A DNA stretch of 35,642 nucleotides from Candidatus Omnitrophota bacterium (GCA_031386565.1 JANNCL010000267.1:1-35642), one strand, 5' to 3'. Shown: positions 2,954 through 35,642, counted from the first letter of the stretch. Notes: a model not told the origin generated them from the sequence alone. Program-made: numbers and translations.

Positions 2954-5900
2954 ATGCTTCGGAAGCTAGGGTGCCTCTTTTTAACTTTTTTACTATTGCC
3001 ATTTTCCCAACTACAAGCGGATCAAATAGTTCTGCCTGTCCCCGGAACCATGGTACGGCTAAGCCCTGCCTATGAGCCTCCGTTATTAAAAGGTATTAAG
3101 GTCCATCCTGAGAATCCGTTTCGTTTCGAATTCGTTTTGGATCGTGGCGATCAAAAATCTACCGTAGGGGCGGATCGTGATCCGCCCTTTTTAAAAGAAG
3201 AATCCAAAAAATTGATCAAATATTTCCTAGCCGCCTTAACCACCCCCGAAAAAGATCTCTGGGTCAACTTAAGCCCCTACGAAAAAGACCGCATCGTGCC
3301 GGAGAGTTTTGGCCAGACTGAGATGGGCCGCGACCTTTTAGCGCAAGACTATATTTTAAAGCAAATTACGGCAAGTTTGGTTTATCCTGAAGGGGATATT
3401 GGTAAAAGGTTTTGGAAAAAGGTATATGAGTCAGCCGGGAATAAAAATGTTCCTGTTAATACGTTCAATAAAGTATGGATCATGCCTGATAAGGCGGAGG
3501 TGTATGAGAATACAAAGACCGGCACGGCGTATATTGTGCGGTCCAGTCTAAAAGTATTGACTGAGCAAGACTATCTTGCCACCAACAAAAACACAACCGT
3601 AGGGGCCGATCTTGTGTCGGCCCGCCATGCCGGGCGGACACAAGGTCCGCCCCTACGAAATACCGATAATTCCAAGATCATACGTGACCTCGTCATCCCA
3701 GAATTAACCAAAGAAATAAACCAAGGCCAAAACTTCGCCCAATTACGTCAAGTTTACAACAGCCTGATACTTGCCACCTGGTACAAAAAGAAGATCAAAG
3801 ACAGCATCCTCTCACAAGTATATGCCGATAAGAACAAGATCAAAGGCACAGAATACGATCAAAGCATTATTTCCCCTCCCCTTGTGGGAGGGGCCAGGGG
3901 AGGGGTACGATCCCAAGGACAAAAAGACGAGTCCCCCCTCCCTAACCCTCCCCACGATGGGGGAGGGAAGAATGACGTCGAAGCCATCTACGCCCGCTAT
4001 TTACAAGCCTTCAAAAAAGGCGCCTACAATTATATCAAAGATACTGACTTGCCTAACGGCCGGACAGTACCTACGAAATATTTCTCCGGCGGGGCGCGAT
4101 TTGATATGGCGATGATGACGACAACGGAAGAGTTAAGTGATCTACATCTTAGCCAAGCGGTGATCGTTCAGGCAAATATGGAACAAGCCATTTTTAAGGA
4201 ACCTGATGCTGCCATGTCGCATGACGAATCAATGCATAAATTACTTCTTGAGGCTATGTTATGGTATATGAACAGAGATCCTGAGCTGTCTCAACAAATG
4301 GTGGTTGCTCATCATGAGGAAGATCTTGTAAGAAAGTTTTTTCTTGGCAGAAAGGTTTTAAATGTTGCGCCGGAAGAAATTTCTTTTTCGGATATTCTAT
4401 TGGAGCAGAATATCATGACGGATATGAGGCAAAAAGGTATCGATGCAAGGGCTCTAGCTCCCGTAAACAAGCATCCACTTTGGGAAAAAGAAAGTTTCTA
4501 TCAAGGAGTGGTGGAAGATATGCATATGATCAATGCTGACACATTTGATGATATTGTCATTGCTAGATTATTTGATCCTGATTATTGGGAAACTACTGTA
4601 GGGAAGCAATTAGGCCAGACGGTAGAACAAAGAAGGGCTCTTTATCCCAGGATCGCAAAAGAATTAAAACGGGTACTTAGAGATAAAGGCAGGCTTTTTA
4701 TGCTTTCTATGGACGGCAATCCGTATTTATTCGAAGCTTTAAGGCACGAAGGGTTTAAGGTTTTTTCTTTAAAGTTAGATAAGAACAATCAGTTATTTGG
4801 CACGCTTTTAATTAACGACAAAACCATTATAGAATACGGAAATGGTGTTGGAAGAACAGACTTCGGCAGTAATCAAGCCATGCTTTCGCTTGCGGACAGT
4901 ATGGCATGGGGGGATGCGAAGGAAGATGCGGGGGTATATTTCAGGCTTAAGGCATTTTTGGATAAGGATGATCTTAAAGATCTGCAGCAATATGATCCGC
5001 AACAGCGCGCGCAATTGATCGCGCTTTGGTTGAAGGTGCGTTGGGCGAAAGCATTTCCTACGGATCATTGGCGATTATTAGAATCCGTCAGAAGCATCAT
5101 CGTAAATTATTTGTTAAAGAATACGTTATTGACGCACAGGGAACGCAATGAGGGGGCGATAGGGGAATTCGCTAAGTTTGGGATGCCCCGCTTTCAAGCG
5201 GAGATGCTGCTGCATTGGGCAGAGGATGTATTTAATGGCAAGTCGGATGCTCGATTCACGTTCCATCAATGGGCGGTGGCGTCCCATGTAGGGGATGCGC
5301 AAAATGCCGTGGATAAATTTGGTGTCATTGTTGGGCTTAATGAAGAGCAGAAAAATGAATTGATCCAGTATCTTTTAGGACAGAGTGAAAGGCTGTACCG
5401 TGATGCCGAAGAACAACAAAAGTTCGACGCTATTTGGCTGGCAGTCAAGTACAAATGGTCCGAGGATTCTTTTAAGCGGTTCATGAATGAACATATGATG
5501 ACGCATATCGATCCCGAAGCGCGTCAGATCTTAAGGCAGGAGGCTTTGGAAGATCTCCCGATGCAGGGACGGGAGAGGTTATATACCCGTCAACAGATCG
5601 CGGACATGGCCAATGATGCGGGCGTGCTTTGGAATCGTTGGGAGTGGATTAAGGCCAGGCAGCCTGCGATCGAGCGGATGGCGGCGCCGTTTAATGGTGT
5701 TGAAGCAAGAAAACGGGCCATTATTTTTGGAAGATTGCTGGAGCTTAATCTAGCACAACAGAAAGACGTAGAGAGTTATCTTTTAGGCGCCCTCGAAAGG
5801 GTATTTGTTGACAATACAGAGCAGCAAAAATTTGATGCTGTTTGGCTGGCAGTGAAATATGGATGGACAGGAGAATCGCTGGTTCGGTTCGTTCAAAATA

Positions 5901-8900
5901 AAATAATTTTCCACATCGATCCAAAGGCTGCGGGATTCTTAAGGAGGGAAGTCCCAGATCACCTTAGGATCTTCCGTTCTGAGAAGTCTGGCGGCTTCTC
6001 TGATGGGGAGATCTTCGCTATGGCTCATGATGCCGGGTTACTTTATGAAACGCGTTGGGAGGTAAAGCATATTAATCAGGAGTCTCAACACGTGATGCAG
6101 GTCATTGAAGAGAAGCTGGCCAAATCTGTCCCGTTAACCCGCGCGCCTAAGATCGAACCGGAGGTCACACAAAGGATCCAGCAGGCCGAGCAAAAGGCCG
6201 ACCTGTTTTTCGAAGATTTGCATGCGTTAAGCACCCTGCCTCCGGCGCAGTTCGTAGAAGAGTTATTGCAGAAGATGGTTATCCAAGAGCCTAATTTTGA
6301 GCGTATCCTTTCAGGGCAGGCGGCCTTGCCGGATAATTGGCAGGACGATGTTGCTGCGTTCGCGAAACGTCTGGATCAACGCTGGCAAGCGTGGGGTGCA
6401 GATGGGATATCCATGCAGCAAAGATTTGGCTCGATCTATTCAGTGATGGCCTTGAGGATCGGAGCCGATTTATTTGCTACTTACGAGCAGGCGGTATTGA
6501 CACACGCATGGTTTTTTGCTTTTGTTTCAGCTGCTCCTCCGGAGGCTATGGTTGAAGCATTGCACATGATCACATCCTCGCATATCATCCATTTAAGGCT
6601 TCATGGGATGCATCCATATTCAGATAAGTTGTTTGAAAGGCCAGTGAGTTTAGATGTTGATACTCTTTATGGAAGAAAGGGCAGGAGTGTTGGTGTTTTA
6701 AGAAATTACTTGGAAGCATTCAAGCCCCTAAGGTCAAAGGTATTTGACCAACGTTTTGAATATGATTTTTTATGGGGTCTGGTGATGGGATCAGACCCAT
6801 CCCCACTTGATCCCAGATATGCGGAGAATCATTCTAACGATCAGGTTAATGTTCTTAAGCAGGGCAAGTCTGATGATGAATTCTTTAGGAATTCATTAAG
6901 AGAAGCTGTCGAACAGCTCGACATTGATCCGCGAGAGTTTGAATTGTTGTTATTGGAAGCGTTAGCTATTTCAGATCAAGAATGGGAAGCGATGGGCTAT
7001 GTTTCTCCTTATAAAATTAAGATGGGACATGAAATCAGTGATTTTTACATTGCTGCCGCGCAGAAAAAACATGTTCTACCCACTGGGCCTGTATCCTTAA
7101 TGAGCCCAGATCCTGGATTGCTTGAATTCAGAGGGGTCTTTTTAAAGAACTACAATAAGGTTTTCGAAGGAAGGGAAAGTTTAAGGGACTACTACATAGA
7201 ATCCTGGTCCGCGCTGTACCCCAGTCTGGCGGGAATAAAAGATCGTGCTCAGACTGCCGACGATAAGGCGGTTTCTGAGAGTTCATGGTTGGATCAGATC
7301 ATTAAGGATCCCAAGATTGACAAGATCAGTGAAGGTGTTCATGTGCGTCGGATCACTTTTTTGAATACGGCTTTGGTTATGGAAATATGGTTATCCGATA
7401 CACGGCAACATGGGATAGACGCTGTTGTTGTCAATGAAGGATTCCCATCTGCTAAAAAGAAAGAATTCAGGAATATCCCTAGACGCTTGGTTTTTGACAA
7501 TAGCGCTGGTATTGAAAAGCGAAAAAGCATGGTGTATACGCTTATGGATTTCTTAGCCGGTGAAATTCTTGTGCAGCGCATCGCGGCCAATCACAAAGCT
7601 TCCAGAGAACTAGAGATCCAGCATAAGGATGAGTATTTGGATGAGAAAGTAAGTGCGGATCTTCAAGGACTTATTGGATTTGGGAAGTTTATTAAGACGA
7701 TTGTTTATATGATTTTTGGCAAAACAGGTTTAATGTACGAGAATCTTTTAAATACAAAATCGAGGTTTTTAAAAGCGGTTTTACGCTTAAATGATACGGA
7801 TTTTTTAAAACAGAAGCCGCAGCTGGGACGAACTTATCAGGTTGTATTTCGTGAGCAGTATTATGGCAAGATATCTATTTCGATGGATGATCGAGATCAG
7901 TTTTATGTTGTTTTGATAGAACAAATGTACGGTCGACCATTATGGAGGCGTATCCCCATAGCACAATATGATCATTTATCGGATATTATAAAAGTTACCC
8001 TTGATTCTATAGAGCAAGAGATCGGGCAGACAGCGGTTCCAGGACAGGGGGTAGATCGGGCTATGGTACAAGGTCAGGGGGCCGACCGTATTAGAAGAGG
8101 ATTGTTGGTGAGTATTGCTTCATCACTATCGTTTTCTCCCCAAGCGGCTGTGATCGAATTTCCTACATATGATGAAGAAAGGGTTACGGGGCAAGTTCCC
8201 GGTTATGTACAAAGCGTGATCGGCAGATGGTTCCCCAGGTATAAAATTATCCTTACACAGGGTGGGGATCAGATTTTATGGGATGAAAGAACCAAAACGC
8301 TGCGTTTTAACAGGGAGCGTTTTGAGGGAATGAACGATGATCAGCTATTTGCGGCCTTGGCTGCAGATACGGCATATTATGGAGTGAAACTTTTTGCTAA
8401 AGATAATGACGCGCTGATGCAAATGGGTTTTATAGGTGCGGAGACGATCGCGCGGGCAAAGAAAATGCTTGTTTTTGACCATCTAGTGTCAGATGGCAAG
8501 ATACCTGTTACTTCAACAATGCAGGAGGAGCAGCTGCTTAGCAAGGCTTTTCTGGCCTTGATCGAACAGCGTCATAAGCTGGTGGATTTTGAAGGGTACA
8601 GCCTTGAAAAGGCCACGCTTGAAAAACCGCTTGTGGATAATAACGGTTTTTTGCAGCAGAGGGTTGTAAGCATTGCTCTGGAAAACTTGAATACGCGCTT
8701 AAAGAAACGCGTTTTAGCAAAGGTTGTCATGGATCTTCAGAGCGGAAAGAATAAAGTTACTTTCATGCCGATGGAAGATAGTGCTCAAATCAGTTCCATT
8801 GACTCAAAGCGCGGGGGTATTGATCTTACTAGTGACAAGATGGATTTAAAGCTTAAAAGCGATGGTGGGGCTATCCGGTTCAAGATGGATCCGGCTCAAT

Positions 8901-9019
8901 TAAAAGCGTTGCAAGAAGCTCCGGGTTTGATCCCTTCTATTGTTAACATGCGCACTTTGCCCGCAGGACAGGAAGGCATCAACATCTTAAAGTTGTTTTT
9001 AGGGGTTCAGGCTCCTTAG
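2954..9019 (+). CDS. Giant secreted modular protein, paralog 1 (2021 aa): conserved N-module + orphan ~1500-aa cargo + conserved C-terminal tail; function unknown
   Basis: Uninterrupted 6066-nt ORF with signal peptide MLRKLGCLFLTFLLLPFSQLQA. The N-module aligns with 11889-14906 (45/58 identical over KYFLAALT..YPE) and with 35400-35642 (36/39 identical over LPVPGTMV..LD+G). The tail GGIDLTSDKMDLKLK..GLIPSIV aligns with the paralog 2 tail. Confidence 0.9.
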   Translation: MLRKLGCLFLTFLLLPFSQLQADQIVLPVPGTMVRLSPAYEPPLLKGIKVHPENPFRFEFVLDRGDQKSTVGADRDPPFLKEESKKLIKYFLAALTTPEKDLWVNLSPYEKDRIVPESFGQTEMGRDLLAQDYILKQITASLVYPEGDIGKRFWKKVYESAGNKNVPVNTFNKVWIMPDKAEVYENTKTGTAYIVRSSLKVLTEQDYLATNKNTTVGADLVSARHAGRTQGPPLRNTDNSKIIRDLVIPELTKEINQGQNFAQLRQVYNSLILATWYKKKIKDSILSQVYADKNKIKGTEYDQSIISPPLVGGARGGVRSQGQKDESPLPNPPHDGGGKNDVEAIYARYLQAFKKGAYNYIKDTDLPNGRTVPTKYFSGGARFDMAMMTTTEELSDLHLSQAVIVQANMEQAIFKEPDAAMSHDESMHKLLLEAMLWYMNRDPELSQQMVVAHHEEDLVRKFFLGRKVLNVAPEEISFSDILLEQNIMTDMRQKGIDARALAPVNKHPLWEKESFYQGVVEDMHMINADTFDDIVIARLFDPDYWETTVGKQLGQTVEQRRALYPRIAKELKRVLRDKGRLFMLSMDGNPYLFEALRHEGFKVFSLKLDKNNQLFGTLLINDKTIIEYGNGVGRTDFGSNQAMLSLADSMAWGDAKEDAGVYFRLKAFLDKDDLKDLQQYDPQQRAQLIALWLKVRWAKAFPTDHWRLLESVRSIIVNYLLKNTLLTHRERNEGAIGEFAKFGMPRFQAEMLLHWAEDVFNGKSDARFTFHQWAVASHVGDAQNAVDKFGVIVGLNEEQKNELIQYLLGQSERLYRDAEEQQKFDAIWLAVKYKWSEDSFKRFMNEHMMTHIDPEARQILRQEALEDLPMQGRERLYTRQQIADMANDAGVLWNRWEWIKARQPAIERMAAPFNGVEARKRAIIFGRLLELNLAQQKDVESYLLGALERVFVDNTEQQKFDAVWLAVKYGWTGESLVRFVQNKIIFHIDPKAAGFLRREVPDHLRIFRSEKSGGFSDGEIFAMAHDAGLLYETRWEVKHINQESQHVMQVIEEKLAKSVPLTRAPKIEPEVTQRIQQAEQKADLFFEDLHALSTLPPAQFVEELLQKMVIQEPNFERILSGQAALPDNWQDDVAAFAKRLDQRWQAWGADGISMQQRFGSIYSVMALRIGADLFATYEQAVLTHAWFFAFVSAAPPEAMVEALHMITSSHIIHLRLHGMHPYSDKLFERPVSLDVDTLYGRKGRSVGVLRNYLEAFKPLRSKVFDQRFEYDFLWGLVMGSDPSPLDPRYAENHSNDQVNVLKQGKSDDEFFRNSLREAVEQLDIDPREFELLLLEALAISDQEWEAMGYVSPYKIKMGHEISDFYIAAAQKKHVLPTGPVSLMSPDPGLLEFRGVFLKNYNKVFEGRESLRDYYIESWSALYPSLAGIKDRAQTADDKAVSESSWLDQIIKDPKIDKISEGVHVRRITFLNTALVMEIWLSDTRQHGIDAVVVNEGFPSAKKKEFRNIPRRLVFDNSAGIEKRKSMVYTLMDFLAGEILVQRIAANHKASRELEIQHKDEYLDEKVSADLQGLIGFGKFIKTIVYMIFGKTGLMYENLLNTKSRFLKAVLRLNDTDFLKQKPQLGRTYQVVFREQYYGKISISMDDRDQFYVVLIEQMYGRPLWRRIPIAQYDHLSDIIKVTLDSIEQEIGQTAVPGQGVDRAMVQGQGADRIRRGLLVSIASSLSFSPQAAVIEFPTYDEERVTGQVPGYVQSVIGRWFPRYKIILTQGGDQILWDERTKTLRFNRERFEGMNDDQLFAALAADTAYYGVKLFAKDNDALMQMGFIGAETIARAKKMLVFDHLVSDGKIPVTSTMQEEQLLSKAFLALIEQRHKLVDFEGYSLEKATLEKPLVDNNGFLQQRVVSIALENLNTRLKKRVLAKVVMDLQSGKNKVTFMPMEDSAQISSIDSKRGGIDLTSDKMDLKLKSDGGAIRFKMDPAQLKALQEAPGLIPSIVNMRTLPAGQEGINILKLFLGVQAP
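3164..3187 (+). repeat. Single REP-like unit (GTAG + 8-bp hairpin) inside the paralog 1 CDS
   Basis: GTAG GGGCGGAT CGTG ATCCGCCC: perfect 8-bp stem with a 4-nt loop. It is translated as TVGADRDPP. Confidence 0.7.
3599..3656 (+). repeat. 58-nt REPIN-like inverted doublet (two hairpins) read in frame inside the paralog 1 N-module
   Basis: GTAG GGGCCGAT CTTGT GTCGGCCC GCCATGCC GGGCGGAC ACAAG GTCCGCCC CTAC. The outer ends are GTAG/CTAC and the two loops are complementary. It encodes VGADLVSARHAGRTQGPPL. Confidence 0.85.
3873..3967 (+). repeat. C-tract/G-tract triple-hairpin cluster inserted in frame in paralog 1 only
   Basis: Three arm pairs: CCCCTCCC (3873-3880) / GGGAGGGG (3886-3893) with loop CTTGT; GGGAGGGG (3898-3905) / CCCCTCCC (3935-3942); CCCTCCCC (3946-3953) / GGGGAGGG (3960-3967). 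It encodes SPPLVGGARGGVRSQGQKDESPLPNPPHDGGG. Paralog 2 is 24 codons shorter here. Confidence 0.8.
5336..6070 (+). repeat. Internal tandem duplication (~136-aa unit, 2 copies) within the paralog 1 cargo
   Basis: Unit 1 starts at LNEEQKNELIQYLLG (5336) and unit 2 at LNLAQQKDVESYLLG (5744). 22/37 residues are identical over EQQKFDA[IV]WLAVKY..HIDP.A, and both units end with DAG[VL]L...RWE[WV]K. Confidence 0.8.
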
Positions 9020-9078
9020 GGACATAATCTTGACTATTAATAATGGTCATGATAAGCTTGGTTGAGGAGGATCTATAT

Positions 9079-9306
9079 ATGATCATTGCCGCGGGAAAAT
9101 TTAAAGCACAATGTTTAAAGATCATGGATGAAGTGCACAATCATCATCGGGAAGTGATTGTTACGAAATATGGAAAGCCTTTTGTCAAATTGACGGGGAT
9201 AAAATCAACGCCTAAAAAATCGTTATTTGGTTTAATGAAGGGGTCTGTGACCATCCATGAGGATATCATAGGGCCGTCCGGGGATAAGTGGGATGCCGAA
9301 AAGTAA
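9079..9306 (+). CDS. Phd/YefM-family antitoxin (VapB-like)
   Basis: MIIAAGKFKAQCLKIMDEVHNHHREVIVTKYGKPFVKL is a typical Phd/YefM N-terminus. GAGGAGG lies 7-8 nt upstream of ATG 9079, so the ORF-track start at 9043 is unlikely. It overlaps the PIN gene by 14 nt. Confidence 0.8.
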   Translation: MIIAAGKFKAQCLKIMDEVHNHHREVIVTKYGKPFVKLTGIKSTPKKSLFGLMKGSVTIHEDIIGPSGDKWDAEK

Positions 9307-9730
9307 TGGATCACAAGCGAAAACATTGCTTTTAGATACGCATGTTTGGCTTTGGCTGATCAATGATAGCGATCAGCTTAAGGGGGCCCGAATAGTCGGC
9401 CACATTGAAGAGTACGCGCAACACAACGGATTAAGGGTTTCCGCGATCTCTGTGTGGGAGATCGGGATGCTGGTTGCGAAGAAAAAGATCACGCTCTCTA
9501 AAGATGTTTTTTTATGGGTAAAAGAGTCGCTTAAAGAAAACGGGTTGACTGTTGAGCCTTTGAGCAATGAGATCTTATTAGAAAGCAATCTTTTAGATGT
9601 TCACGGCGATCCTGCGGACCGGATGATAATAGCTACAGCAAAATTAACGCACGCGGCGATAATGACCGCAGATAAAGCCATCATTCAGTTCTGCCGTAAG
9701 CATGATATGGAAGTTGTGCCGGTAAGCTAA
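9293..9730 (+). CDS. vapC: PIN-domain toxin VapC
   Basis: LLLDTHVWLWL (first acidic Asp), SVWEIGML, DPADRMIIATA and MTADKAI match the PIN acidic residues. It overlaps the upstream antitoxin. Confidence 0.85.
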   Translation: MPKSNGSQAKTLLLDTHVWLWLINDSDQLKGARIVGHIEEYAQHNGLRVSAISVWEIGMLVAKKKITLSKDVFLWVKESLKENGLTVEPLSNEILLESNLLDVHGDPADRMIIATAKLTHAAIMTADKAIIQFCRKHDMEVVPVS

Positions 9731-11888: not shown

Positions 11889-14800
11889 ATGCGGAAAACG
11901 ATATTTAGCCTAGTTTTGGTCAGCTTCTTGATCAGTAACATCAATATTCCTTTGCTTAGGGCAGGGGAAGTTGTTGTGCCCATCATGCCCAAGCCGGGCA
12001 CCATGGTTTCTTTAAGTCCTATCTTTACCCCGGCTTATCTTAAAGGGATTGTTATTCATCCCGACAATGCCCTGCAATTCGACTTTTTGATCAACAAAGG
12101 CGATGGAAATTTAAACACTCAAGAAAAGAATCAGGAATATACTAAACTAGTCAAATACTTCCTGGCGGCACTCACCGTCCCGGATCAAGACCAATGGGTG
12201 AACTTAAGCCCGTATGAAAAAGACCGCATTATTAAAGATGACTTCGGCAAGACCGAAATGGGCCGCGACCTTTTGGGTCAAGATTATTTGTTAAAGCAGA
12301 TCACCTCATCTTTAATGTATCCCGAATCTGGTTTAGGCAAAAATTTCTGGGATAAAGTCTATGCCAAAGCCCAAGAAGAATTTGGCAACACCAATATCCC
12401 CGTCAACACATTCAACAAAGTCTGGATCGTGCCAGATCAAGCCATTGTTTATGAAAGCGGCAATATTGCGTATGTAGGGCGCAGTCATTTGAAAGTGATG
12501 TTGGAAGAAGATTATCTTGCCATCAACAAAAATAAATCCGTAGGGGAGGACCTTGTGTCCTCCCGCCATGCCGGGCCGATACAAGATCGGCCCCTACAAA
12601 ATACCGATCAAGCACAAATAATCCGTGAACTCATCCTCCCCGAATTAGAAAAAGAAGTCAACCAAGGCAAAAATTTCGCCCAATTACGCCAAGTTTTTAG
12701 CGGCATGATCCTAGCCACTTGGTATAAAAAAGCATTGAAAGAATCTTTGTTAGCCAAAATTTACGCAGATAAAAATAAAACTAAAGGAACGGGATATACA
12801 AAAAGCATTCTCAACCGAAGCCAACCTGGGAAACAACCAAACGACATCGAGCTTGTGTACCAGCAATACCTCCAAGCCTTTAAGAAAGGCGTATACAACT
12901 ATATTAAAGAGGACACAGACAAATACACACATCAACCCATTCCCAGAAAATATTTTGCGGGTGGGGTGAATGGCATTCCAAAAAATGTTCTAGAAGTACG
13001 CCAAGGCACAAGCCCGGCAATGACGGCGGAAGTAAACACCCTTGATGCCGCGCAAGTTAGTTTAGATAGTAAAAAAGCAGATGCGGCGATGAATATTCAA
13101 GAAATACAATCTTACAGCCAATGGGTAGTTCGGATATTGACGACCGGTGTACCGTTGACATTTACAACTGTTTCAGCTCAGGCAGCACAATTTCAAGAAT
13201 TTGTATCAACATATCCTTGGTTAGCAACGGGTTCTGCAATAGGGCTGACGGCTGCAACATGGTTTGGGTATTATTTGTGGAGTATGTTTCATACGTTAAA
13301 GGGAATGGGGCGTGCTTATGACCAGAAAATAGTGAGCAAGGAACAATTTCGTGCGTGGCTAGATGAATATCTTCCCACACAAAGCGACGCAATATTGATT
13401 GGCTTATTGAACCACCGACAGATGGCAGTTCGGGAAAAATCTGCGGAAATATTAGTGCGTTTGAAAACTAGAAGGGCTTCTCAAGAAGAGGTGATCCAAG
13501 CATTGTTGGGAAGACTTGGCGATTATGATCCTGTTCATCAGAGGGCATTATTAGGATTGAAGGAATTAGGAGTAAGCCAAGAACTCCTATTGAGCGAATA
13601 TCATGTCATTGTCTGGAATGCAGATAACTCAACATTTATGCGCTTGGGAGGAGACTCCGAACGCTCCTCTTTTGAGTCTGTTAACAAAGCCATCAAATTT
13701 TTTAGTGAAATAGGTGAACAAGGCAGGGATGAATTAGTTGCTATAGGTAAAAATCATCCAAGTGAAGGTGTTCGAAAGCGAGCGGGAGAAATTGTATCCA
13801 GGATAGTATGGGATTATGGGACATGGGGTTCAACTTATACTTTGGATGATGTCGAAATGGCAATAAAAATGTTAGGAAGAATGGGGTCGGTAGGGTTGTA
13901 TGAATTATCCAGAATAAAAGGGGAAGATCTTGACCGCAGGGTTATTGAAATGGCGAAAAATCAAATAGACGCGGCGATGGGGGAGAATTTGAGTTATAAG
14001 GGCAAGGACTTTGAAATCAGCTCGCAAGGACTATTGATTGGCACAATATATTCAATTTATTTTCTTTTACGTGAAAGGGCTATTGCTTCGAAGCATCCAA
14101 CGATTGCATTTGACCTAGATGGAACGATTGCTTTTTGGAACGGGAGTGAATATCTGATAAGACCCGGAATCGAAGAACAAATCCGTAAGCTTAAACAAAG
14201 GGGTTTTCGTATAGTTTTATGGACGTCAGCACCAAGAGAGCATGTTCGTGTTAACTTTATTGAAAAGAATTCTGCAATTGCTAATTTTTTTGATTTAGTT
14301 ATTTCCAGAGAAAGTTTCAGCCCTTTAATAGAAAATGAGCAAGCAATGAAAGGCGTTTATGCAAGATTTATGAAGATTCCAGTAAGTGATTTTATGGAAA
14401 GAATTCATAGAACATATTTTGCGACTAACAATGATTGGGGATTTAAGGATTTTTTGTTGCTGGGATACAAGTTCTTAGTTGATGATACACCGCTCAAGAT
14501 TTTAAAAGGTCAGCCTTATCCTCTAATCCAAGAGTACAAGATGAGGTACATGCAGGCGGGATTTTTCTACACTAATTCTCAAGGAGTGAGTCTGGGTGAC
14601 GATTATCCGATAGGAAATCTAGCTGATACGATTCAAGAAAAAATTGAGCAAGCTGACAAATCATTTGGTGGTGGTACTGATGTTGATGTGGCTGGAAATG
14701 TATTAGATGCGGCGATGAAAGATCCCGGCGGTATTGACATGAACTCCGCTAATTTGGATTTGCAGATTAAGCGTGATGGTAAAGGGGTGCCTTTGCCGCT

Positions 14801-14906
14801 TTCTCAGCAAGATATGGCGCTGTTGTCTCGTATTGAAGGATTTGTTCCGCGTATCATTGCAATCAAACCTGCCTCTTCATTGCCGATCTTTAGTAAAATA
14901 CAGTAA
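11889..14906 (+). CDS. Secreted modular protein, paralog 2 (1005 aa): conserved N-module + TM segment + HEAT-like repeats + HAD-superfamily phosphatase domain + conserved tail
   Basis: Signal peptide, then an N-module homologous to paralog 1. Hydrophobic helix WLATGSAIGLTAATWFGYYLW. HEAT-like units (HRQMAVREKSAEILVRL, HPSEGVRKRAGEIVSRI). HAD motifs: FDLDGT (14109-14126), LWTSA, VDDTP (~14478-14492). Tail: GGIDMNSANLDLQIK..GFVPRII. Confidence 0.9.
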   Translation: MRKTIFSLVLVSFLISNINIPLLRAGEVVVPIMPKPGTMVSLSPIFTPAYLKGIVIHPDNALQFDFLINKGDGNLNTQEKNQEYTKLVKYFLAALTVPDQDQWVNLSPYEKDRIIKDDFGKTEMGRDLLGQDYLLKQITSSLMYPESGLGKNFWDKVYAKAQEEFGNTNIPVNTFNKVWIVPDQAIVYESGNIAYVGRSHLKVMLEEDYLAINKNKSVGEDLVSSRHAGPIQDRPLQNTDQAQIIRELILPELEKEVNQGKNFAQLRQVFSGMILATWYKKALKESLLAKIYADKNKTKGTGYTKSILNRSQPGKQPNDIELVYQQYLQAFKKGVYNYIKEDTDKYTHQPIPRKYFAGGVNGIPKNVLEVRQGTSPAMTAEVNTLDAAQVSLDSKKADAAMNIQEIQSYSQWVVRILTTGVPLTFTTVSAQAAQFQEFVSTYPWLATGSAIGLTAATWFGYYLWSMFHTLKGMGRAYDQKIVSKEQFRAWLDEYLPTQSDAILIGLLNHRQMAVREKSAEILVRLKTRRASQEEVIQALLGRLGDYDPVHQRALLGLKELGVSQELLLSEYHVIVWNADNSTFMRLGGDSERSSFESVNKAIKFFSEIGEQGRDELVAIGKNHPSEGVRKRAGEIVSRIVWDYGTWGSTYTLDDVEMAIKMLGRMGSVGLYELSRIKGEDLDRRVIEMAKNQIDAAMGENLSYKGKDFEISSQGLLIGTIYSIYFLLRERAIASKHPTIAFDLDGTIAFWNGSEYLIRPGIEEQIRKLKQRGFRIVLWTSAPREHVRVNFIEKNSAIANFFDLVISRESFSPLIENEQAMKGVYARFMKIPVSDFMERIHRTYFATNNDWGFKDFLLLGYKFLVDDTPLKILKGQPYPLIQEYKMRYMQAGFFYTNSQGVSLGDDYPIGNLADTIQEKIEQADKSFGGGTDVDVAGNVLDAAMKDPGGIDMNSANLDLQIKRDGKGVPLPLSQQDMALLSRIEGFVPRIIAIKPASSLPIFSKIQ
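12540..12597 (+). repeat. 58-nt REPIN-like inverted doublet read in frame inside the paralog 2 N-module (same site as 3599-3656)
   Basis: GTAG GGGAGGAC CTTGT GTCCTCCC GCCATGCC GGGCCGAT ACAAG ATCGGCCC CTAC. Both stems are perfect. It encodes VGEDLVSSRHAGPIQDRPL. Confidence 0.85.
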
Positions 14907-15005
14907 ATTTCTTCCCCGTTTGGAAATAATTGTTTCAGAACACATTTTTATTGACAATGATCTTGTTATATAGTAACCTTGGTTACAGTAACGGGGGTTG
15001 CAATT

Positions 15006-16346
15006 ATGAAATTTTATGATCGACAACAGGAATTGGCCGAACTTAACACCTTGATGGGACAGGCTAAGGGTGGATCGCGTATGGCGGTCCTGACTGGTCG
15101 CAGGCGCGTGGGAAAGACGCTGCTTTCCCTGGAGTTCGCCAGGGACAAAAAGCATCTTTATCTTTTTGTAGCTAAGAAGTCCGAGGCCCTGCTTTGCGAA
15201 GAATACGTTGCAGAGATAAAACGGATGTACCCTGATGCACCCGTTATTGGGAATATTCGTTCCTTTGCGAATGTCTTTCAACTTTTACTGCGGATCGCCG
15301 TGGATGAACCACTTACGGTTATCATTGACGAGTTCCAGGAGTTTTACAACATCAACCCCTCTGTTTATTCCGAGATACAAAAACTTTGGGACTTGAAAAA
15401 GGCCAAAAGCAAGCTGAACGTCATTTGCGTTGGGTCGGTGTATTCGCTGATGCACAAGATCTTCGAGGGTTCCAAGGAGCCCTTGTTTAATCGTGCGGAT
15501 CGGATGTTTATGATCAAGCCGTTTTTGATTGGAACCATGGCCGGCATCCTAGAGGACTATAAGGTAAAGAATGCGACGGAACTCTTTAATTACTATCTCT
15601 TTACCGGTGGAAGCCCGAAGTATATTGATCAGCTAGTTGAGAACCAGGCGTTTACGTTTGAGAAGATCCTGAACTTTGCGGTTGAGGCCAACTCGCCATT
15701 CTTAAACGAAGGCAGGAACCTTCTGATCGAGGAGTTCGGGAAAGAGTATGGGACGTATTTCTCCATACTTGAGCTGATCTCGGTTGGGAAGACGGGCCGT
15801 TCGGAGATCCAGTCTATTCTGGAGTCGGATGTCGGCGGATACCTCGACCGGCTGGAGAGGGATTACGCTGTCATCGAGAGATATAAGCCGGTGAACGCGA
15901 AGCCAAACTCAAAAGCGCAAAAGTACCGGATCGCGGATAATTTCCTGGCCTTCTGGTTCCGGTTTATTTATCGCAACCGGGCTGCAGTCGAAACCGGGAA
16001 CTATGAGTACATCAGGGATATAATCAGGCGTGACTATTCAACGTATGCTGGCCGCATTCTGGAGCGGTTCTTCCAGTCTCTGTTTGCCGAGACCGGAGAG
16101 TATAACCGTATCGGCTCGTATTGGGAGAAGGATGGCCACAACGAGATCGACCTGGTGGCAATGAACGATATTAAGAAGATCATGGTCATTGCCGAGGTCA
16201 AGATGAACAAGGATAGGATCGACCTAGCCGGGTTAAAGCTCAAGTCCAAGGCGTTGATCGCCAGTTATCCAAAGTACAAAGTCGAGTGGCAGGCGCTCGG
16301 ACTTGAGGATGTTGAGCGTTTGATCAATCGGTCAGGCGGTGTCTGA
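15006..16346 (+). CDS. AAA-type ATP-binding protein (Arch_ATPase/ATPase_2-like N-domain + DUF234-like C-terminal domain)
   Basis: FYDRQQEL..GRRRVGKT (Walker A) and IIDEFQ (Walker B). The C-terminal IGSYWEKDGHNEIDLVA...AEVK resembles a PD-(D/E)xK motif. GGGGG lies upstream of ATG 15006. GC is visibly higher than in neighbours. Confidence 0.8.
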   Translation: MKFYDRQQELAELNTLMGQAKGGSRMAVLTGRRRVGKTLLSLEFARDKKHLYLFVAKKSEALLCEEYVAEIKRMYPDAPVIGNIRSFANVFQLLLRIAVDEPLTVIIDEFQEFYNINPSVYSEIQKLWDLKKAKSKLNVICVGSVYSLMHKIFEGSKEPLFNRADRMFMIKPFLIGTMAGILEDYKVKNATELFNYYLFTGGSPKYIDQLVENQAFTFEKILNFAVEANSPFLNEGRNLLIEEFGKEYGTYFSILELISVGKTGRSEIQSILESDVGGYLDRLERDYAVIERYKPVNAKPNSKAQKYRIADNFLAFWFRFIYRNRAAVETGNYEYIRDIIRRDYSTYAGRILERFFQSLFAETGEYNRIGSYWEKDGHNEIDLVAMNDIKKIMVIAEVKMNKDRIDLAGLKLKSKALIASYPKYKVEWQALGLEDVERLINRSGGV

Positions 16347-17493: not shown

Positions 17494-17567
17494 TGCCCGG
17501 TGGTGTAAAGGTAGCACACGAGAATTTGGATCTCGTTGTCAAGGTTCGAATCCTTGCTGGGCAACCA
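17494..17567 (+). tRNA. tRNA-Gln (anticodon UUG), CCA encoded
   Basis: Manual cloverleaf. Acceptor TGCCCGG/CTGGGCA. D-arm GTGT-AAAGGTA-GCAC. Anticodon arm CGAGA-ATTTGGA-TCTCG (TTG at positions 34-36). 4-nt variable loop. T-arm CAAGG-TTCGAAT-CCTTG. Discriminator A, then CCA. Confidence 0.9.
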
Positions 17568-22778: not shown

Positions 22779-24097
22779 GGATCCCGCCCCAGAACATCGA
22801 GGCTGAGAAAGCCGTTTTGGGAGCGATGATGTTAAGCGATGAAGCTATCGGGACTGCTCTAGAGCATCTCGATAGCTTTTATTTTTATGAGACCCGCCAT
22901 CAAAAGATCTTCGAGGCGATGCGCGAGCTTTATACAGAGCGTCGTCAGGTCGATCTGATCACCTTGACCGATCATTTAAAGAATAAAGCCATCTTTGATG
23001 CCGTGGGCGGCAAGAACTATGTGATGGAGATTGCCGATTTTGTCCCCACCGCGGCGAACGTCAAATACTACATCGATATCATTAAGGAAAAAGGCATACA
23101 GCGTCAGCTTATTAAGAATTCGACGGAGATCATTGCCAAGAGTTACGGGACGGATGTCAATGTTGATGAATTGGTCGATGCCGCGGAACAATTGATCTTT
23201 GAGATCGCCACCTCCAAACAAAAGCAGCAGGCGGTGCCGGTCAAAGATTTGGTGAAGGCCGCGATCGAGACCATCGACAGTTTGTATCAGCGCAAGCAGG
23301 CCATAACCGGGGTGCCTACCGGTTTCATCGATTTCGATAAAATGACCTCAGGTCTGCAGAAGTCCGATCTGATCATCATTGCCGGTCGCCCGTCCATGGG
23401 GAAAAGCGCGTTCGCGGTCAGTATCGGTGAGAATGCCGCTATCGATCATAAGGTGCCGGTGGCCATTTTTTCTCTGGAAATGTCTAAAGAGCAATTAGTG
23501 CAGCGCATGTTATGTTCCCAGGCAATGGTCGATGCGAACAAGGTGCGCACCGGTATGTTATCCCCTTCGGATTGGCCGCATCTGACCAAAGCTGCGGGCA
23601 AGCTTTCCAGTGTCCCTATTTTCATTGATGATACGCCGGCCATTTCCGTGCTTGAATTACGTGCCAAAGCCCGCCGGTTAAAGGCCGCGCATAATATCGG
23701 TCTCATCATTGTGGATTATTTACAGCTGATGGTATCATCGGCCAGGGCGGAGAGCCGCCAACAAGAAATTTCCGAAATCTCTAGATCCTTAAAGGCTTTA
23801 GCGCGTGAATTAAGAGTCCCATTGATCGCGATCAGCCAGTTATCTCGCGCCGTTGAAAGCCGCCAGGACCATCGCCCGCAATTATCCGATCTACGTGAAT
23901 CCGGCGCCATCGAACAGGACGCGGATGTGGTGGTCATGCTCATGCGTGAAGAATATTATACCCCCACCGAAGAAAACCGCGGCATCGCGGAGGCCATCAT
24001 CGGCAAACAACGTAACGGCCCTGTCGGTTCCGTCAAAATGAAATTCTTTAAAGAGTACGTCAAATTCGCGAATTTAGAAACAGCGCACGGGCAGTAA
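22760..24097 (+). CDS. dnaB: Replicative DNA helicase DnaB
   Basis: PPQNIEAEKAVLGAMML, Walker A GRPSMGKS, IIVDYLQLM, LSDLRESGAIEQDADVV. Confidence 0.95.
   Translation: MGNEEIRIPPQNIEAEKAVLGAMMLSDEAIGTALEHLDSFYFYETRHQKIFEAMRELYTERRQVDLITLTDHLKNKAIFDAVGGKNYVMEIADFVPTAANVKYYIDIIKEKGIQRQLIKNSTEIIAKSYGTDVNVDELVDAAEQLIFEIATSKQKQQAVPVKDLVKAAIETIDSLYQRKQAITGVPTGFIDFDKMTSGLQKSDLIIIAGRPSMGKSAFAVSIGENAAIDHKVPVAIFSLEMSKEQLVQRMLCSQAMVDANKVRTGMLSPSDWPHLTKAAGKLSSVPIFIDDTPAISVLELRAKARRLKAAHNIGLIIVDYLQLMVSSARAESRQQEISEISRSLKALARELRVPLIAISQLSRAVESRQDHRPQLSDLRESGAIEQDADVVVMLMREEYYTPTEENRGIAEAIIGKQRNGPVGSVKMKFFKEYVKFANLETAHGQ
24041..24079 (+). repeat. Direct repeat copy A (functional dnaB 3' end)
   Basis: AAATTCTTTAAAGAGTACGTCAAATTCGCGAATTTAGAA matches 24700-24738 at 35/39 positions. 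Confidence 0.85.
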
Positions 24098-24174
24098 TCG
24101 GTGAATCTTTAGTCTCATCTTAGTCGCCTTGACGATGACATCATTACATGATAAATTTATAAAACGAAGGAGGA

Positions 24175-24414
24175 GTGGTGCCTACAATTTTAGTTGTTGG
24201 ATCCTATAGGTTCTTCTTTTACTCAAGTGATGCGCAAGAACCAATTCATGTGCATGTTCAGTCTGGCGTTTGTTCGGCAAAATTTTGGATAAATCCTACT
24301 CGTTTGCAATCATCGAAAGGGTTTAATCATCGGCAGATAACTGAGATCATGAAACTTGTAGAGAAGAACTCTGGGCTTTTTGAAAGGAAATGGCATGAAT
24401 ACTTTAACTCTTGA
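24175..24414 (+). CDS. DUF4160-family small protein
   Basis: FFFYSSDAQEPIHVHVQSG..AKFWINP...W.EYF is the DUF4160 pattern. GTG start (24175 or 24178) follows GAAGGAGGA. Confidence 0.75.
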   Translation: MVPTILVVGSYRFFFYSSDAQEPIHVHVQSGVCSAKFWINPTRLQSSKGFNHRQITEIMKLVEKNSGLFERKWHEYFNS

Positions 24415-24694
24415 ACACACAAGTGTCGCGACCAAGCTGACGTTTTCTGATGATTCTTTTACGGTTTATTTAGATGACGGAAGGAATATCAATATCCCAT
24501 TAGCATGGTACCCCAGGCTTTTGTCAGGGAATAAGAAAGAGCGTGAACAGTATGAATTTATTGGCGGAGGCGAAGGTGTGCATTGGCCGAAGCTTAATGA
24601 AGACATTCAAGTAGAAGGTCTTTTAGCCGGACGGGCATCTCAAGAAAGTCAAAGCTCCCTAAAGAAATGGTTTCAAAAACGGAACAAGAAATAA
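24395..24694 (+). CDS. DUF2442-family small protein
   Basis: LDDGRNINIPLAWYPRL...EFIGGGEGVHWPKLNEDIQVEGLL is the DUF2442 pattern. It overlaps the DUF4160 gene. ATG 24395 is preferred over 24380. Confidence 0.7.
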   Translation: MNTLTLEHTSVATKLTFSDDSFTVYLDDGRNINIPLAWYPRLLSGNKKEREQYEFIGGGEGVHWPKLNEDIQVEGLLAGRASQESQSSLKKWFQKRNKK

Positions 24695-24699
24695 TCAAA

Positions 24700-24783
24700 A
24701 AATTCTTCAAAGATTACGTCAAATTCGTGAATTTGGAAGGATCTTCGGTCAATAAATCTTTCTCCACGCATATTACAAATTGA
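24700..24783 (+). pseudogene. Orphaned alternative dnaB 3' end (direct repeat copy B plus its own 14-codon tail and stop)
   Basis: Reads KFFKDYVKFVNLEGSSVNKSFSTHITN*, compared with the dnaB end KFFKEYVKFANLETAHGQ*. There is no start codon or upstream helicase sequence. Confidence 0.6.
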
Positions 24784-24832
24784 TGGGAATAGAAGGTGAC
24801 AGTTGAGATAAAAAGAGTGGTGGAAGATCGTA

Positions 24833-25171
24833 TTAGTTTATAGCGGTATTTTCTTGAATGGTTTTATATAAAGCTAGTAATAATTTTGCGCTATTAAAGC
24901 TTTTCTTATTCAATAGTTTTCTGAGTTGTTGTAAAGATTCTGCTTCCTCGGTTCCTTCAGGTGCTTTTTTAACGAGCTCACATAATTCAATCTCTAAAAC
25001 TTTTGCTATGCGGTTAAGCGTATGCAAAGACGGCTGTTTTAAGCCCCTTTCAATCAACCCAATATAGTTATCGCTAAGCTCTGTTTTTTCTGCTAATTGG
25101 GCTTGAGTTAATCCACACTGCTCTCTATAAGAGCGAACTCTTTTGCCAACCTGTTGGTAAGGATTTTCCAT
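24833..25171 (-). CDS. XRE-family helix-turn-helix transcriptional regulator
   Basis: GKRVRSYREQCGLTQAQLAEKTELSDNYIGLIERG..PSLHTLNRIAKVLEI (HTH_3). GGAGG lies 7 nt upstream of the ATG at 25171 (minus strand). Confidence 0.85.
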   Translation of the reverse strand: MENPYQQVGKRVRSYREQCGLTQAQLAEKTELSDNYIGLIERGLKQPSLHTLNRIAKVLEIELCELVKKAPEGTEEAESLQQLRKLLNKKSFNSAKLLLALYKTIQENTAIN

Positions 25172-25319
25172 TAAAAACCTCCATGACGGATATATTAATT
25201 GCATTTAATGGCGCCTTCCAGATACCAATGGTTGTTATTTTATGTTGAAATAATAACTATCAGTGTGTATTATGATTTTGATCTATCTGATAAATATTTT
25301 ATTCTGGGAATATCAACAT

Positions 25320-25925
25320 ATGTCTATGAGGCTTAACTTAGGGTGTGGGACAAAAAAGCGTGAGGGCTGGATCAATATTGATTCTGCTAAAGAATGTGAT
25401 CCAGATGTCCTGCATGATTTAACTGAGCCATTACCTTTTGAAGACCAATCCGTGGATGAAATAATGGTTGATGCGGTTTTAGAGCATTTTGATAAATATG
25501 CACGCTATTTTATCTTGTACGATTGGGTAAGAGTTCTGAAGACGGGCGGTTGTATTTCGATTGGGGTTCCAAATTTTCAGAAGATTTTGTTTCGTTATTT
25601 CAAGTGGGGATTTGATGATCTTGTTGACACTATCTTTGGTGAGACTATGTGGGAGTCAAAATATTACATTGGTCATTTCGGAAGTCATAAATGGGGGTAT
25701 TCGGATAAAAGTTTAAAGAGTTTTCTGGAATGTTTTGGTATAAGTCGTATTGAAGTTCAAAAACATGGCCTTATCCTCACCGCTAAAGGAATAAAATCGA
25801 GGCATATCTCTTATCAAGATTTGAAAAATTCTCGGATTTACTCTCCCAATAATGCCTGTGGCACAGGAAGGGCATTTATGACTTTAGATGAAGTTAAAGA
25901 AGTTGCTAATTTTAAGGTTAGGTAA
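25320..25925 (+). CDS. Class I SAM-dependent methyltransferase (Methyltransf_11/23-like)
   Basis: LNLGCGTKKREGWINID (motif I), VDEIMVDAVLEHF, RVLKTGGCISIGVPN. The ORF-track GTG at 25263 adds an implausible hydrophobic leader. Confidence 0.7.
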   Translation: MSMRLNLGCGTKKREGWINIDSAKECDPDVLHDLTEPLPFEDQSVDEIMVDAVLEHFDKYARYFILYDWVRVLKTGGCISIGVPNFQKILFRYFKWGFDDLVDTIFGETMWESKYYIGHFGSHKWGYSDKSLKSFLECFGISRIEVQKHGLILTAKGIKSRHISYQDLKNSRIYSPNNACGTGRAFMTLDEVKEVANFKVR

Positions 25926-25930
25926 AATGC

Positions 25931-27552: not shown

Positions 27553-27581
27553 ATGTAAAATTTGCCTGAGATAGAGTGTAA

Positions 27582-35399: not shown

Positions 35400-35642
35400 A
35401 TGCCTCGAAGATTTTTAAGTTTAATCCTATCTATATGTTTATTGCCTTTGCCGCAAGTCTATGCAGCAGAAGGACTTTTAAGCTTGCCTGTGCCTGGGAC
35501 TATGGTACGGCTAAGCCCTGCTTATGAACCGCCACTATTAAAAGGCATTAAAGTTCATCCTGATAATCCGTTTCGTTTCGAGTTCATTTTAGATAAAGGA
35601 AACGAAACGCCCGCCGTAGCCAAAGGCGAAAGCACTTTGGCG
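35400..35642 (+). CDS. Secreted modular protein, paralog 3 (first 81 codons only; runs off the window; absent from the ORF track)
   Basis: My translation from ATG 35400 is MPRRFLSLILSICLLPLPQVYAAEGLLSLPVPGTMVRLSPAYEPPLLKGIKVHPDNPFRFEFILDKGNETPAVAKGESTLA. 36/39 residues are identical to paralog 1 after the signal peptide. The nucleotide differences I checked are mostly synonymous. Confidence 0.85.
   Translation, partial: MPRRFLSLILSICLLPLPQVYAAEGLLSLPVPGTMVRLSPAYEPPLLKGIKVHPDNPFRFEFILDKGNETPAVAKGESTLA

Follow-up and report, generated by a model that had tools for sequence, protein, structure and literature searches.

A stretch of 35,642 nt from a Candidatus Omnitrophota bacterium (GCA_031386565.1 JANNCL010000267.1:1-35642), the window in what follows, contains a single intact reading frame (2954..9019, plus strand) for a protein of 2,021 amino acids (aa), here called the giant. 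We found it to be a complete member of a large family, in which a conserved N-terminal head and a conserved C-terminal tail are obligately coupled and enclose a variable cargo that is uncoupled from this frame. Within the cargo, a four-residue motif, D-x-A-M, stands at the boundaries between modules. The internal module structure and the motif are new in the present analysis. We give about an even chance to the interpretation that the family is an extracytoplasmic carrier, which would export variable modules and present or deliver them to a host or prey, the motif being a processing or docking site.

The giant gene was complete, with signal peptide, head, cargo, tail and stop codon, and its head and tail homologies lie in-frame, 6 kb apart. 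An uninterrupted open reading frame (ORF) with a signal peptide had been read from the nucleotide sequence in an earlier note, hereafter the original prediction. Both points held: the frame was intact, and sequence features indicated a Sec-type signal. The predicted Sec/SPase-I signal peptide (aa 1-22, 2954..3019) reads MLRKLGCLFLTFLLLPFSQLQA/DQ, with the slash at the cleavage site. Its start is basic, its hydrophobic stretch is 13 residues long, and a small-x-small site precedes the conserved box (MLRKLGCLFLTFLLLPFSQLQA/DQIVLPVPGTMVRLSP). The head (aa 23-380, 3020..4093), which contains this box (LPVPGTMVRLSP, nt 3032-3067), ends in KYFSGG and is 53% identical to that of a paralogue in the window. 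The cargo (aa 381-1953, 4094..8812) is a string of orphan modules in which database searches revealed no known domain. The tail (aa 1954-2021, 8813..9016; GGIDLTSDKMDLKLKSDGGAIRFKMDPAQLKALQEAPGLIPSIVNM...) was assigned by homology. All features of the family genes in the window lie on the plus strand.

Two further copies were present in the window, on the same strand as the giant and, like it, interspersed among housekeeping genes. The second member (11889..14906, 1,005 aa) was recognized by BLASTP and by domain and motif scans, with its head at aa 26-360 and its tail from nt 14727. BLASTP aligned aa 5-381 of the giant with aa 6-360 of this paralogue (206/387 identical, 53%, E=1e-122), and aa 1954-2000 with aa 947-993 (30% identity, E=3e-5). 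Outside the head and the tail there was no alignment. This was as claimed from the sequence, that the two proteins have only their ends in common, and the count of 45/58 identical residues over KYFLAALT..YPE was exact. The third member (35400..35642), found by homology, consists of the signal peptide and the start of a head, the contig end cutting off the rest. Over its first ~75 aa it matched the giant at 40/59 positions (E=1e-25), and the 36/39 identities reported for LPVPG..LDRG were reproduced exactly.

The family extends far beyond the window. A word-indexed search with the head returned 1,385 proteins, and one with the tail 451 tail-bearing proteins. Matches in this kind of search were no longer than about 1.75-1.85 times the query (680 aa or less for a 390-aa query, 149 aa or less for an 81-aa query), so the two sets represent gene fragments only. 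The full-length picture was obtained from a scan of species-representative genomes and from an exhaustive profile search. In the profile search, the head matched 8,355 clusters at E<=1e-3, and 6,750 at E<=1e-30, among 1.84 billion representatives, and it was N-terminal in all 150 of the matches listed. The scan, with one genome per species, gave at least 582 confirmed copies. The best 80 of these all came from metagenome-assembled genomes of Omnitrophota, some of them labelled 'uncultured Planctomycetales'. Among these best 80 loci there were up to eight copies per genome, and tandem arrays were common (at locus L025, four to five family genes in a row). The named close relatives of the head were Candidatus Omnitrophica or Omnitrophota, except for one partial sequence labelled Minisyncoccia.

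The head region of the giant (aa 5-381) was 53-58% identical to family members, and its tail (aa 1954-2021) matched the tails of more than 40 others. The median length of complete representatives (n=122) was 1,290 aa (range 687-2,915), and at least five genes at the loci exceeded 3,600 aa, reaching the locus edge; several were longer than 3,700 aa. The giant had been called the largest of a three-copy family. This was not the case: the family has thousands of members, and 9 of the 122 complete representatives are as long as the giant (2,021 aa) or longer. An exact look-up found no record of the giant on other contigs. No family member was present in a phage collection, and a phage origin was rejected on this basis.

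The original prediction had proposed a census of genes that carry both ends, and of their cargos. In 79 loci there were 96 head ORFs and 75 tail ORFs, and 61 ORFs had both. Every ORF with only one of the two was incomplete: either the contig ended within it, or a stop or frameshift separated it from its other half, which lay alongside. In 122 of 140 further head-bearing representatives, the tail was found 0-24 residues from the C-terminus. The head (~355 aa) and the tail (~65 aa) are thus obligately coupled. The tail was never found without the family's own head, and is thus not a general sorting tag. The minimal member, P0095 (438 aa), consists of a head, a 17-aa linker and a tail. Two locus genes (L032, 9959-13972; L049, 2412-7232) have one in-frame stop each between the head-bearing and the tail-bearing parts; these could be pseudogenes, assembly errors or instances of read-through.

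The copies within a genome were old, with a median head identity of 62%. For 53 out of 76 copies, among them the two complete ones in the window, the closest relative was a copy in another genome and not one in their own. This ruled out a merely local duplication, which had been named as an alternative at the outset, and related genomes were found to carry both ends.

The cargo was uncoupled from this frame. When locus members had heads at least 75% identical, 47 of the 51 ordered pairs shared less than 10% detectable cargo similarity. The same pattern was seen in the larger representative set, which is biased by clustering. Two genes of the same genome, L031 and L050, were 82% identical up to ...RKYFSGG; the similarity was lost after this point and came back within a few residues of GGIDL. 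The positions of these breakpoints, at KYFSGG and GGIDL, suggested that the unit of exchange is bounded by two double-glycine points.

The number of modules strung together in a cargo ranges from one to ten or more. In the first set of homologues, D-x-A-M occurred 86 times downstream of KYFSGG, compared with 2.7 expected, and not at all inside the heads, where 2.1 were expected. An independent set, the 122 complete members, contained 329 copies against an expectation of 12.5, a 26-fold enrichment. No other gapped tetrapeptide was as enriched in these proteins, N-x-A-M coming next at 6-fold. At least one D-x-A-M was present in 111 of the 122, and the first one lay a median of 18.5 residues past the head. 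There was no enrichment in other proteins of the same genomes (10 observed, 16.2 expected). The residues flanking the motif were not conserved.

At the nucleotide level, neither conservation nor a Shine-Dalgarno signal was detected upstream of the ATG of the motif, and the alanine codon bias was the same as in other Ala-Met pairs. D-x-A-M is thus selected at the protein level. Two other roles, an internal translation start and a recombination site acting at the DNA level, were considered and rejected on the same grounds.

Known domains sit between successive motifs. In P0258, a receiver domain (1689-1772) lies between the motifs at 1667 and 1824, and a helix-turn-helix (HTH) domain (2348-2407) between those at 2250 and 2426. 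In P0316, DnaJ (521-580) is framed by motifs at 354 and 595, and HATPase_c (1655-1753) by motifs at 1570 and 1763. P0242 is a string of about ten motif-headed units, and the duplicated units in it start at the motif. D-x-A-M therefore marks module boundaries. Thirteen of the 61 locus members with both ends had no D-x-A-M, and their tails were divergent; the motif is thus the mark of a large subgroup and not of the whole family.

In the giant, D-x-A-M is found at aa 384, 418 and 1701. The first (D384 MAM, 4103..4114) is 4 aa past KYFSGG. The second (D418 AAM, 4205..4216) is the start of a module, M1 (aa 418-640, 4205..4873), and the alignments with both copies of this module in P0242 begin here. 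M1 is the sole piece of the cargo with a relative: P0242 holds the sequence of aa 418-605 twice, at 38-39% identity. At its end is the variant N-x-A-M (N640 QAM, 4871..4882), the form that is itself enriched in the family. Self-comparison revealed a tandem repeat further inside the cargo (5318..6061), formed by aa 789-897 (nt 5318-5644) and aa 925-1036 (nt 5726-6061), with 44% identity over 112 aa (E about 1e-25). Motif 4 (D1701 RAM, 8054..8065) starts the last cargo module. A degenerate motif (D1942 SAQ, 8777..8788) stands 12 aa upstream of GGIDL, where the family usually has D-x-A-M. Both this DSAQ and the DPAQ within the tail (8927-8938) have Q in place of the M of the family consensus, which may be a correlated change.

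In the paralogue, D-x-A-M occurs at aa 398, 694 and 940 (nt 13080-13091, 13968-13979 and 14706-14717). These motifs separate the head, a part with one candidate transmembrane (TM) segment (aa 448-466) and a weak HEAT match, a part with a weak HAD-like match (aa 739-809), and the tail.

The cargo domains were catalogued by three Pfam censuses together with precomputed domains. Most cargos had no Pfam match at all. The enzymes recognized were methyltransferases, radical SAM, HATPase_c, Glu/Leu and Ala dehydrogenases, GGDEF, NUDIX, HAD, HD, pyruvate-phosphate/glucan-water dikinase (PPDK), protein kinase, histidine phosphatase, GNAT, GDSL lipase and glycosyltransferases. The regulatory or DNA-related domains were receiver, XRE-type HTH, the DnaJ J-domain and the C-terminal domain of the RNA polymerase alpha subunit; repeat scaffolds were of the HEAT and TPR types. 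Most of the recognizable modules are enzymes and regulators of a cytoplasmic type, which need cytoplasmic cofactors or DNA.

The giant's own cargo stayed an orphan, in agreement with the original prediction that its middle carries no motif of a named family. The whole protein had no match in Pfam or NCBIfam at E<=1, and a sequence-profile search found no relative of the cargo or of M1 in the PDB. Among 5.8 billion proteins the cargo matched itself and, in part, one family member, P0242; no other member's cargo matched it. By eye, M1 had been considered a degenerate class-I methyltransferase. This was dropped, as the profiles gave no support.

The two ends were equally without named relatives. 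Neither matched Pfam or NCBIfam, nor did the ends of the paralogue or of the minimal member, and the head matched no PDB sequence in a profile search. That neither end is a known trafficking domain was thus borne out by the Pfam, NCBIfam and PDB searches, which linked neither head nor tail to a characterized secretion or adhesin family. A structural model of P0095 was made with AlphaFold2 (AF2) from a 75-sequence alignment. It was confident over residues ~40-340 (predicted TM-score, pTM, 0.71), and the head was modelled as two beta-hairpins and several long helices. A Foldseek search of the PDB with the head model was likewise negative at E<=1e-3 (best E=0.08, TM-scores 0.19 or lower), and weak matches to NheA, MakE and colicin Ia were treated as noise. 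In the model, the LPxPG box was packed into the head domain (pLDDT, the per-residue confidence score, 83-97). This suggested that the box would be part of the fold and not a free signal.

Two loops of the head are variable. One (aa 308-340, 3875-3973) carries in the giant a low-complexity Gly/Pro-rich insertion, SPPLVGGARGGVRSQGQKDESPLPNPPHDGGGKN, that is missing from the paralogue. The other (aa ~214-240) has a segment, VGADLVSARHAG, common to the giant and the paralogue and present in part in P0095.

The tail model consisted of helices only, the longer at DPAQLKALQ and the other, a short one, close to the end, and the tail was poorly modelled in the context of P0095 too. The models suggest that the tail needs a partner.

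A small-x-small site was found no more than 9 aa upstream of the LP.PG.MV.LSP box in 109 of 114 members, typically as AQA/QDF. The box had been placed right after the predicted cleavage site in the window copies, and the larger sample agreed, with the box following an AxA-type signal-peptidase site. The pre-sequences looked classical, with a positive n-region and a short hydrophobic region before AQA/QDF. A twin-arginine motif was present in 2/114 and a lipobox in 1/114, and on these counts Tat export and a lipoprotein signal were rejected.

We then asked how often the cargo contains a TM segment. A Kyte-Doolittle scan was too strict and a lenient Wimley-White scan too noisy, and both were replaced by a rule of 19 uncharged residues with an octanol-scale free energy of -5 or lower, which gave 0 false positives in 184 heads. 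This rule found no TM segment in 140 of 184 cargos (76%), one in 37 and two in six; 44 of the 184 had at least one. The cargo of the giant had no clean TM segment. This suggested that most members are exported whole and unfolded. Export of the whole protein would be odd for radical SAM, dehydrogenase, GGDEF, HTH and J-domain modules, unless they act in the cytoplasm of another cell.

The same data bear on a function within the producer cell, in which the N-terminal helix and the head would sit at the inner membrane, the cargo would form tethered cytoplasmic multi-enzyme assemblies, and the export prediction would be wrong. The cytoplasmic character of the cargo repertoire is in line with this, as are the 44 members with candidate TM segments, the paralogue among them, and nearly half of the published Omnitrophota giants of at least 10,000 aa are predicted to be TM-only, with cytoplasmic domains. 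On the other hand, the pre-sequences resemble classical cleaved signals, three-quarters of the cargos, including that of the giant, have no TM segment to return the chain, and the homologous domain in Streptomyces (below) is extracytoplasmic. We regard a producer-cell function as improbable.

A translated search of plasmid records yielded six Streptomyces proteins of about 760-820 aa by annotation, encoded on large plasmids (WP_121549542.1 and WP_251091514.1 are examples). They are uncharacterized and had no Pfam match. The giant (aa 91-280) was 33% identical to aa 426-597 of one of them (E=7e-32), and positions ~82-346 of the head profile matched the Streptomyces proteins with E values from 4e-40 to 6e-21. 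These alignments showed the core of the head to be homologous to a domain of anchored Streptomyces surface proteins.

A signal peptide is present in all six Streptomyces proteins; over the first ~380 aa they form at least three groups that are unrelated to one another. The order of parts is a variable region, a PGG[IV]DFTTLELRY element ~50 aa before the core, the core, and a second motif, GGVD[FL]S, which stands exactly where the Omnitrophota head ends in KYFSGG. What comes next varies: in three of the six, a stalk rich in Pro and Thr leads to a sortase-type signal (LAxTG), and in the others a TM-plus-basic anchor follows a shorter spacer. An LPXTG-like motif with a hydrophobic stretch and a basic tail was absent from the family proteins of the window and was found only in these relatives. 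The Streptomyces proteins therefore resemble the Omnitrophota family in the homologous core, the signal peptide, the GG[IV]D motifs and the joining of a conserved core to a variable partner region. They differ from it in that the variable region comes first, and D-x-A-M, a C-terminal GGIDL tail and long strings of modules are all missing. From this architecture we infer an extracytoplasmic role for the core domain, with a variable region attached as its partner. The original prediction had called a role at the surface or in cell-cell interaction plausible. Its extracytoplasmic part is supported, indirectly, by these anchored homologues; delivery into another cell would be a further step, and is argued below from the nature of the cargo.

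In one of these proteins (L080 4726-7047, plasmid p1 of Streptomyces fungicidicus), the variable N-terminal region has an HSE...(35 aa)...FCTRC pattern, which to the eye is reminiscent of the signature of nucleotide deaminases; Pfam gave no match.

Profile-profile comparison (hhalign) aligned the first half of the Omnitrophota tail with the Streptomyces pre-core element over 40 columns (probability 69%, E=4e-5). The two Streptomyces GG[IV]D elements also matched each other (probability 83%). The tail may thus be related to a strand element that adjoins the core in Streptomyces, and we hypothesize that it docks on the head, in cis or in trans. Two other assignments were rejected. The LPxPG box as a degenerate GGID element gave hhalign probabilities of 0.1-1.6%, and the tail as the counterpart of the segment with the post-core GGVD aligned over only 7 columns.

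Such docking would be expected if the proteins were a resident scaffold or coat of the envelope, in the periplasm or on the producer's own surface. The modules would then be structural or binding units and would not be delivered, and head-tail binding in cis would make the cargo a giant loop, or in trans would produce a head-to-tail polymer. Several observations are consistent with a coat. The tail did not fold alone in spite of its 122-sequence alignment, its GGID hairpin resembles the element next to the Streptomyces core, which GGxD brackets on both sides, and the Streptomyces relatives end in wall or membrane anchors. Moreover, most cargos have no recognizable domain or are HEAT/TPR repeat scaffolds, and a cultured relative has been described in the literature as a 'coated coccus'. 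On the other hand, the AF2 model of the minimal member showed no head-tail contact, and among the modules are many genuine cofactor enzymes and DNA-binding domains, for which there is no obvious use in the envelope. The very fast turnover of the cargo also fits conflict or host interaction better. A coat is possible in our view, though somewhat doubtful.

The layout also invites comparison with known systems that combine constant and variable parts. In the polymorphic toxins (CdiA, Rhs, MafB, LXG), as in the present family, a constant trafficking part is joined to a variable part, and near-identical frames carry unrelated cargo. The demarcation motif is VENN or PxxxxDPxGL in these toxins, versus KYFSGG, D-x-A-M and GGIDL in the Omnitrophota family. 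In the family, however, the variable part is internal and multi-modular and is followed by a conserved tail, and there is no linked immunity gene, no recognized toxin and no TPS, FHA, RHS-YD, LXG or PAAR domain (Pfam/NCBIfam E<=1).

If the family were a classical polymorphic toxin system, in which bacteria compete by means of exchangeable toxic tips and carry the matching immunity genes, this would account for the conserved frame, the unrelated cargos and the sharp breakpoints, and for the multiple copies and tandem arrays. It would also account for an orphan ORF found just 3' of one complete family gene (L086 4900-9444, JADFXH010000003.1). This headless ORF, P0172 (147 aa), lies 200 nt on and consists of 77 unique residues and a full tail; it resembles the orphan tips found beside cdiA and rhs genes, and is a single case. 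Against such a system, the variable part is not C-terminal, no small downstream gene was conserved across the 79 loci, and the cargos are general enzymes and regulators with none of the known toxin domains; RHS, LXG, TPS, PAAR and similar domains were likewise missing in Pfam and NCBIfam.

The genes downstream of the giant do not favour it either. An 87-aa ORF (9043..9306), by eye like a Phd/YefM-type antitoxin, is followed by a VapC-type PIN gene (9293..9730; Pfam match), whose start overlaps it by 14 nt. This is an ordinary toxin-antitoxin pair. We consider a classical polymorphic toxin system very improbable. The delivery-module and swappable-cargo logic proposed in the original prediction accordingly stood in part: fixed ends and a variable middle are general in the family, and a polymorphic toxin system in the strict sense, with linked immunity or secretion genes, is not what the loci contain.

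The MARTX toxins of Vibrio and relatives are similar in layout, as conserved N- and C-terminal regions frame effector modules that are swapped and shuffled between loci and separated by defined sites. Unlike them, the Omnitrophota family has no RTX or other glycine-rich repeats and no cysteine protease domain (Pfam), and its ends are not homologous to theirs. MARTX has a C-terminal type-1 secretion signal, whereas the family has an N-terminal Sec signal and many copies per genome, and cleavage at D-x-A-M is putative. The family therefore resembles MARTX and the polymorphic toxins in logic, fails the defining features of both and is a member of neither. Cargo proteins of type IX secretion with a C-terminal domain (CTD) are like it in that they have a signal peptide and a functional part that varies, and that 60-80 aa at the C-terminus are conserved. 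Unlike the CTD, the family tail has no CTD profile match and no predicted beta-sandwich, and never occurs without the head.

Giant multi-enzyme proteins of 10,000-147,000 aa have been reported from Omnitrophota (West-Roberts et al. 2023, bioRxiv 10.1101/2023.11.21.568195; Nielsen and Lui 2026, bioRxiv 10.64898/2026.06.07.730766). These share with the present family the phylum, the methyltransferase, HATPase_c, GNAT, HAD, HD, radical SAM, PPDK_N, HEAT and TPR modules, and signal peptides placed before cytoplasm-type domains. In both, most of the sequence is unique and without known domains. The family differs from the published giants in its length, 0.7 to >3.7 thousand aa, and in being mostly without TM helices, SecA-DEAD and C39. 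The giant itself is below their threshold (at least 10,000 aa, >20 kb), with no TM segment in its cargo and no SecA-DEAD or C39 domain. Word searches of the two papers revealed no junction or cleavage motif and no mention of a shared head or tail; in one of them, the cleavage points are stated to be unknown. A text search of the literature for the tail motif gave nothing relevant.

A bolder interpretation takes D-x-A-M to be the processing code of a new polyprotein delivery system. The head and the tail would be a self-contained export and translocation device, the cut modules would work in the host or prey, and the same head, tail and motif would organize the giants of 10,000-147,000 aa. We consider this combined proposal speculative and rather unlikely.

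The more general carrier interpretation was reached from the Sec signals placed before cytoplasm-type modules, from the fast turnover of the cargo and from the surface-anchored Streptomyces relatives. According to it, the protein would cross the inner membrane unfolded via Sec. There, in the envelope or at the surface, it would be retained or routed by the head, perhaps with the help of the tail. Its modules would be displayed outside the cytoplasm. The most likely target, to which or into which they would be brought, would be a host or prey cell, since cytoplasmic cofactors or DNA are needed by most of those that can be recognized. D-x-A-M would be the site at which modules are cut or docked. 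Cleavage of the signal peptide, the final location, the delivery and a reader of the motif are the parts of this scheme that we infer. Omnitrophota have been described as host-dependent or predatory, and the carrier interpretation fits this lifestyle.

Several results weigh against a carrier. The motif is not essential to the frame, as seen in the 13 locus members without it. Metabolic enzymes such as glutamate dehydrogenase are unusual effectors. The signal peptides were read from sequence features, and TM and signal calls were made by simple hydropathy rules. In about a quarter of the members, the paralogue in the window among them, a candidate TM segment in the cargo would leave the downstream modules and the tail in the cytoplasm of the producer, which is hard to reconcile with a single topology for all. 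The tail, modelled alone by AF2 with 122 sequences, gave a pLDDT of 58 and a pTM of 0.29 and does not fold alone, and in the minimal member P0095 it did not dock on the head. Finally, no recurrent neighbour gene for secretion, proteolysis or immunity was found across the 79 loci. (The top-ranked 'neighbour' clusters lay on the opposite strand over the head coordinates and were taken as antisense shadow ORFs of the head.)

The window is probably an entire contig, as the giant is on record on a contig of identical length. The rest of it is the ordinary chromosome of a two-membrane bacterium, with PpiD, HisG, IspE, GlmU, PrsA, L25, Pth, SSB and DnaB and a BamA-Skp-LpxD-LpxC/FabZ-LpxA-LpxI cluster. 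Directly upstream of this cluster is a stretch of low GC content (24000-28300; 0.38-0.40, compared with 0.44-0.50 elsewhere). It carries two family-2 glycosyltransferases and a Methyltransf_24 gene, and looks like an acquired island for the modification of envelope glycans. A DUF234/ATPase_2 family ATPase (14979-16346) lies directly 3' of the paralogue. The sole RNA gene detected in the window was tRNA-Gln(TTG) (17494-17567).

Omnitrophota are widespread and very small bacteria, whose huge proteins are puzzling and have almost no annotation. With the head, the tail and a four-residue junction motif, a family that comprises at least 8,355 clusters can now be searched for. 'Dark' giant ORFs become strings of units that can be parsed, with specific sites at which to look in proteomic data. 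If D-x-A-M is also what organizes the true giants, it would supply the 'cleavage points' that earlier work called missing. The paradox of these proteins is sharpened into a testable form: enzymes and DNA-binding domains of a cytoplasmic type make up proteins that are exported via Sec. Should other cells receive the modules, an uncultured phylum would have a major effector repertoire that has gone unrecognized; otherwise, the family would represent a new way to build an envelope or coat.

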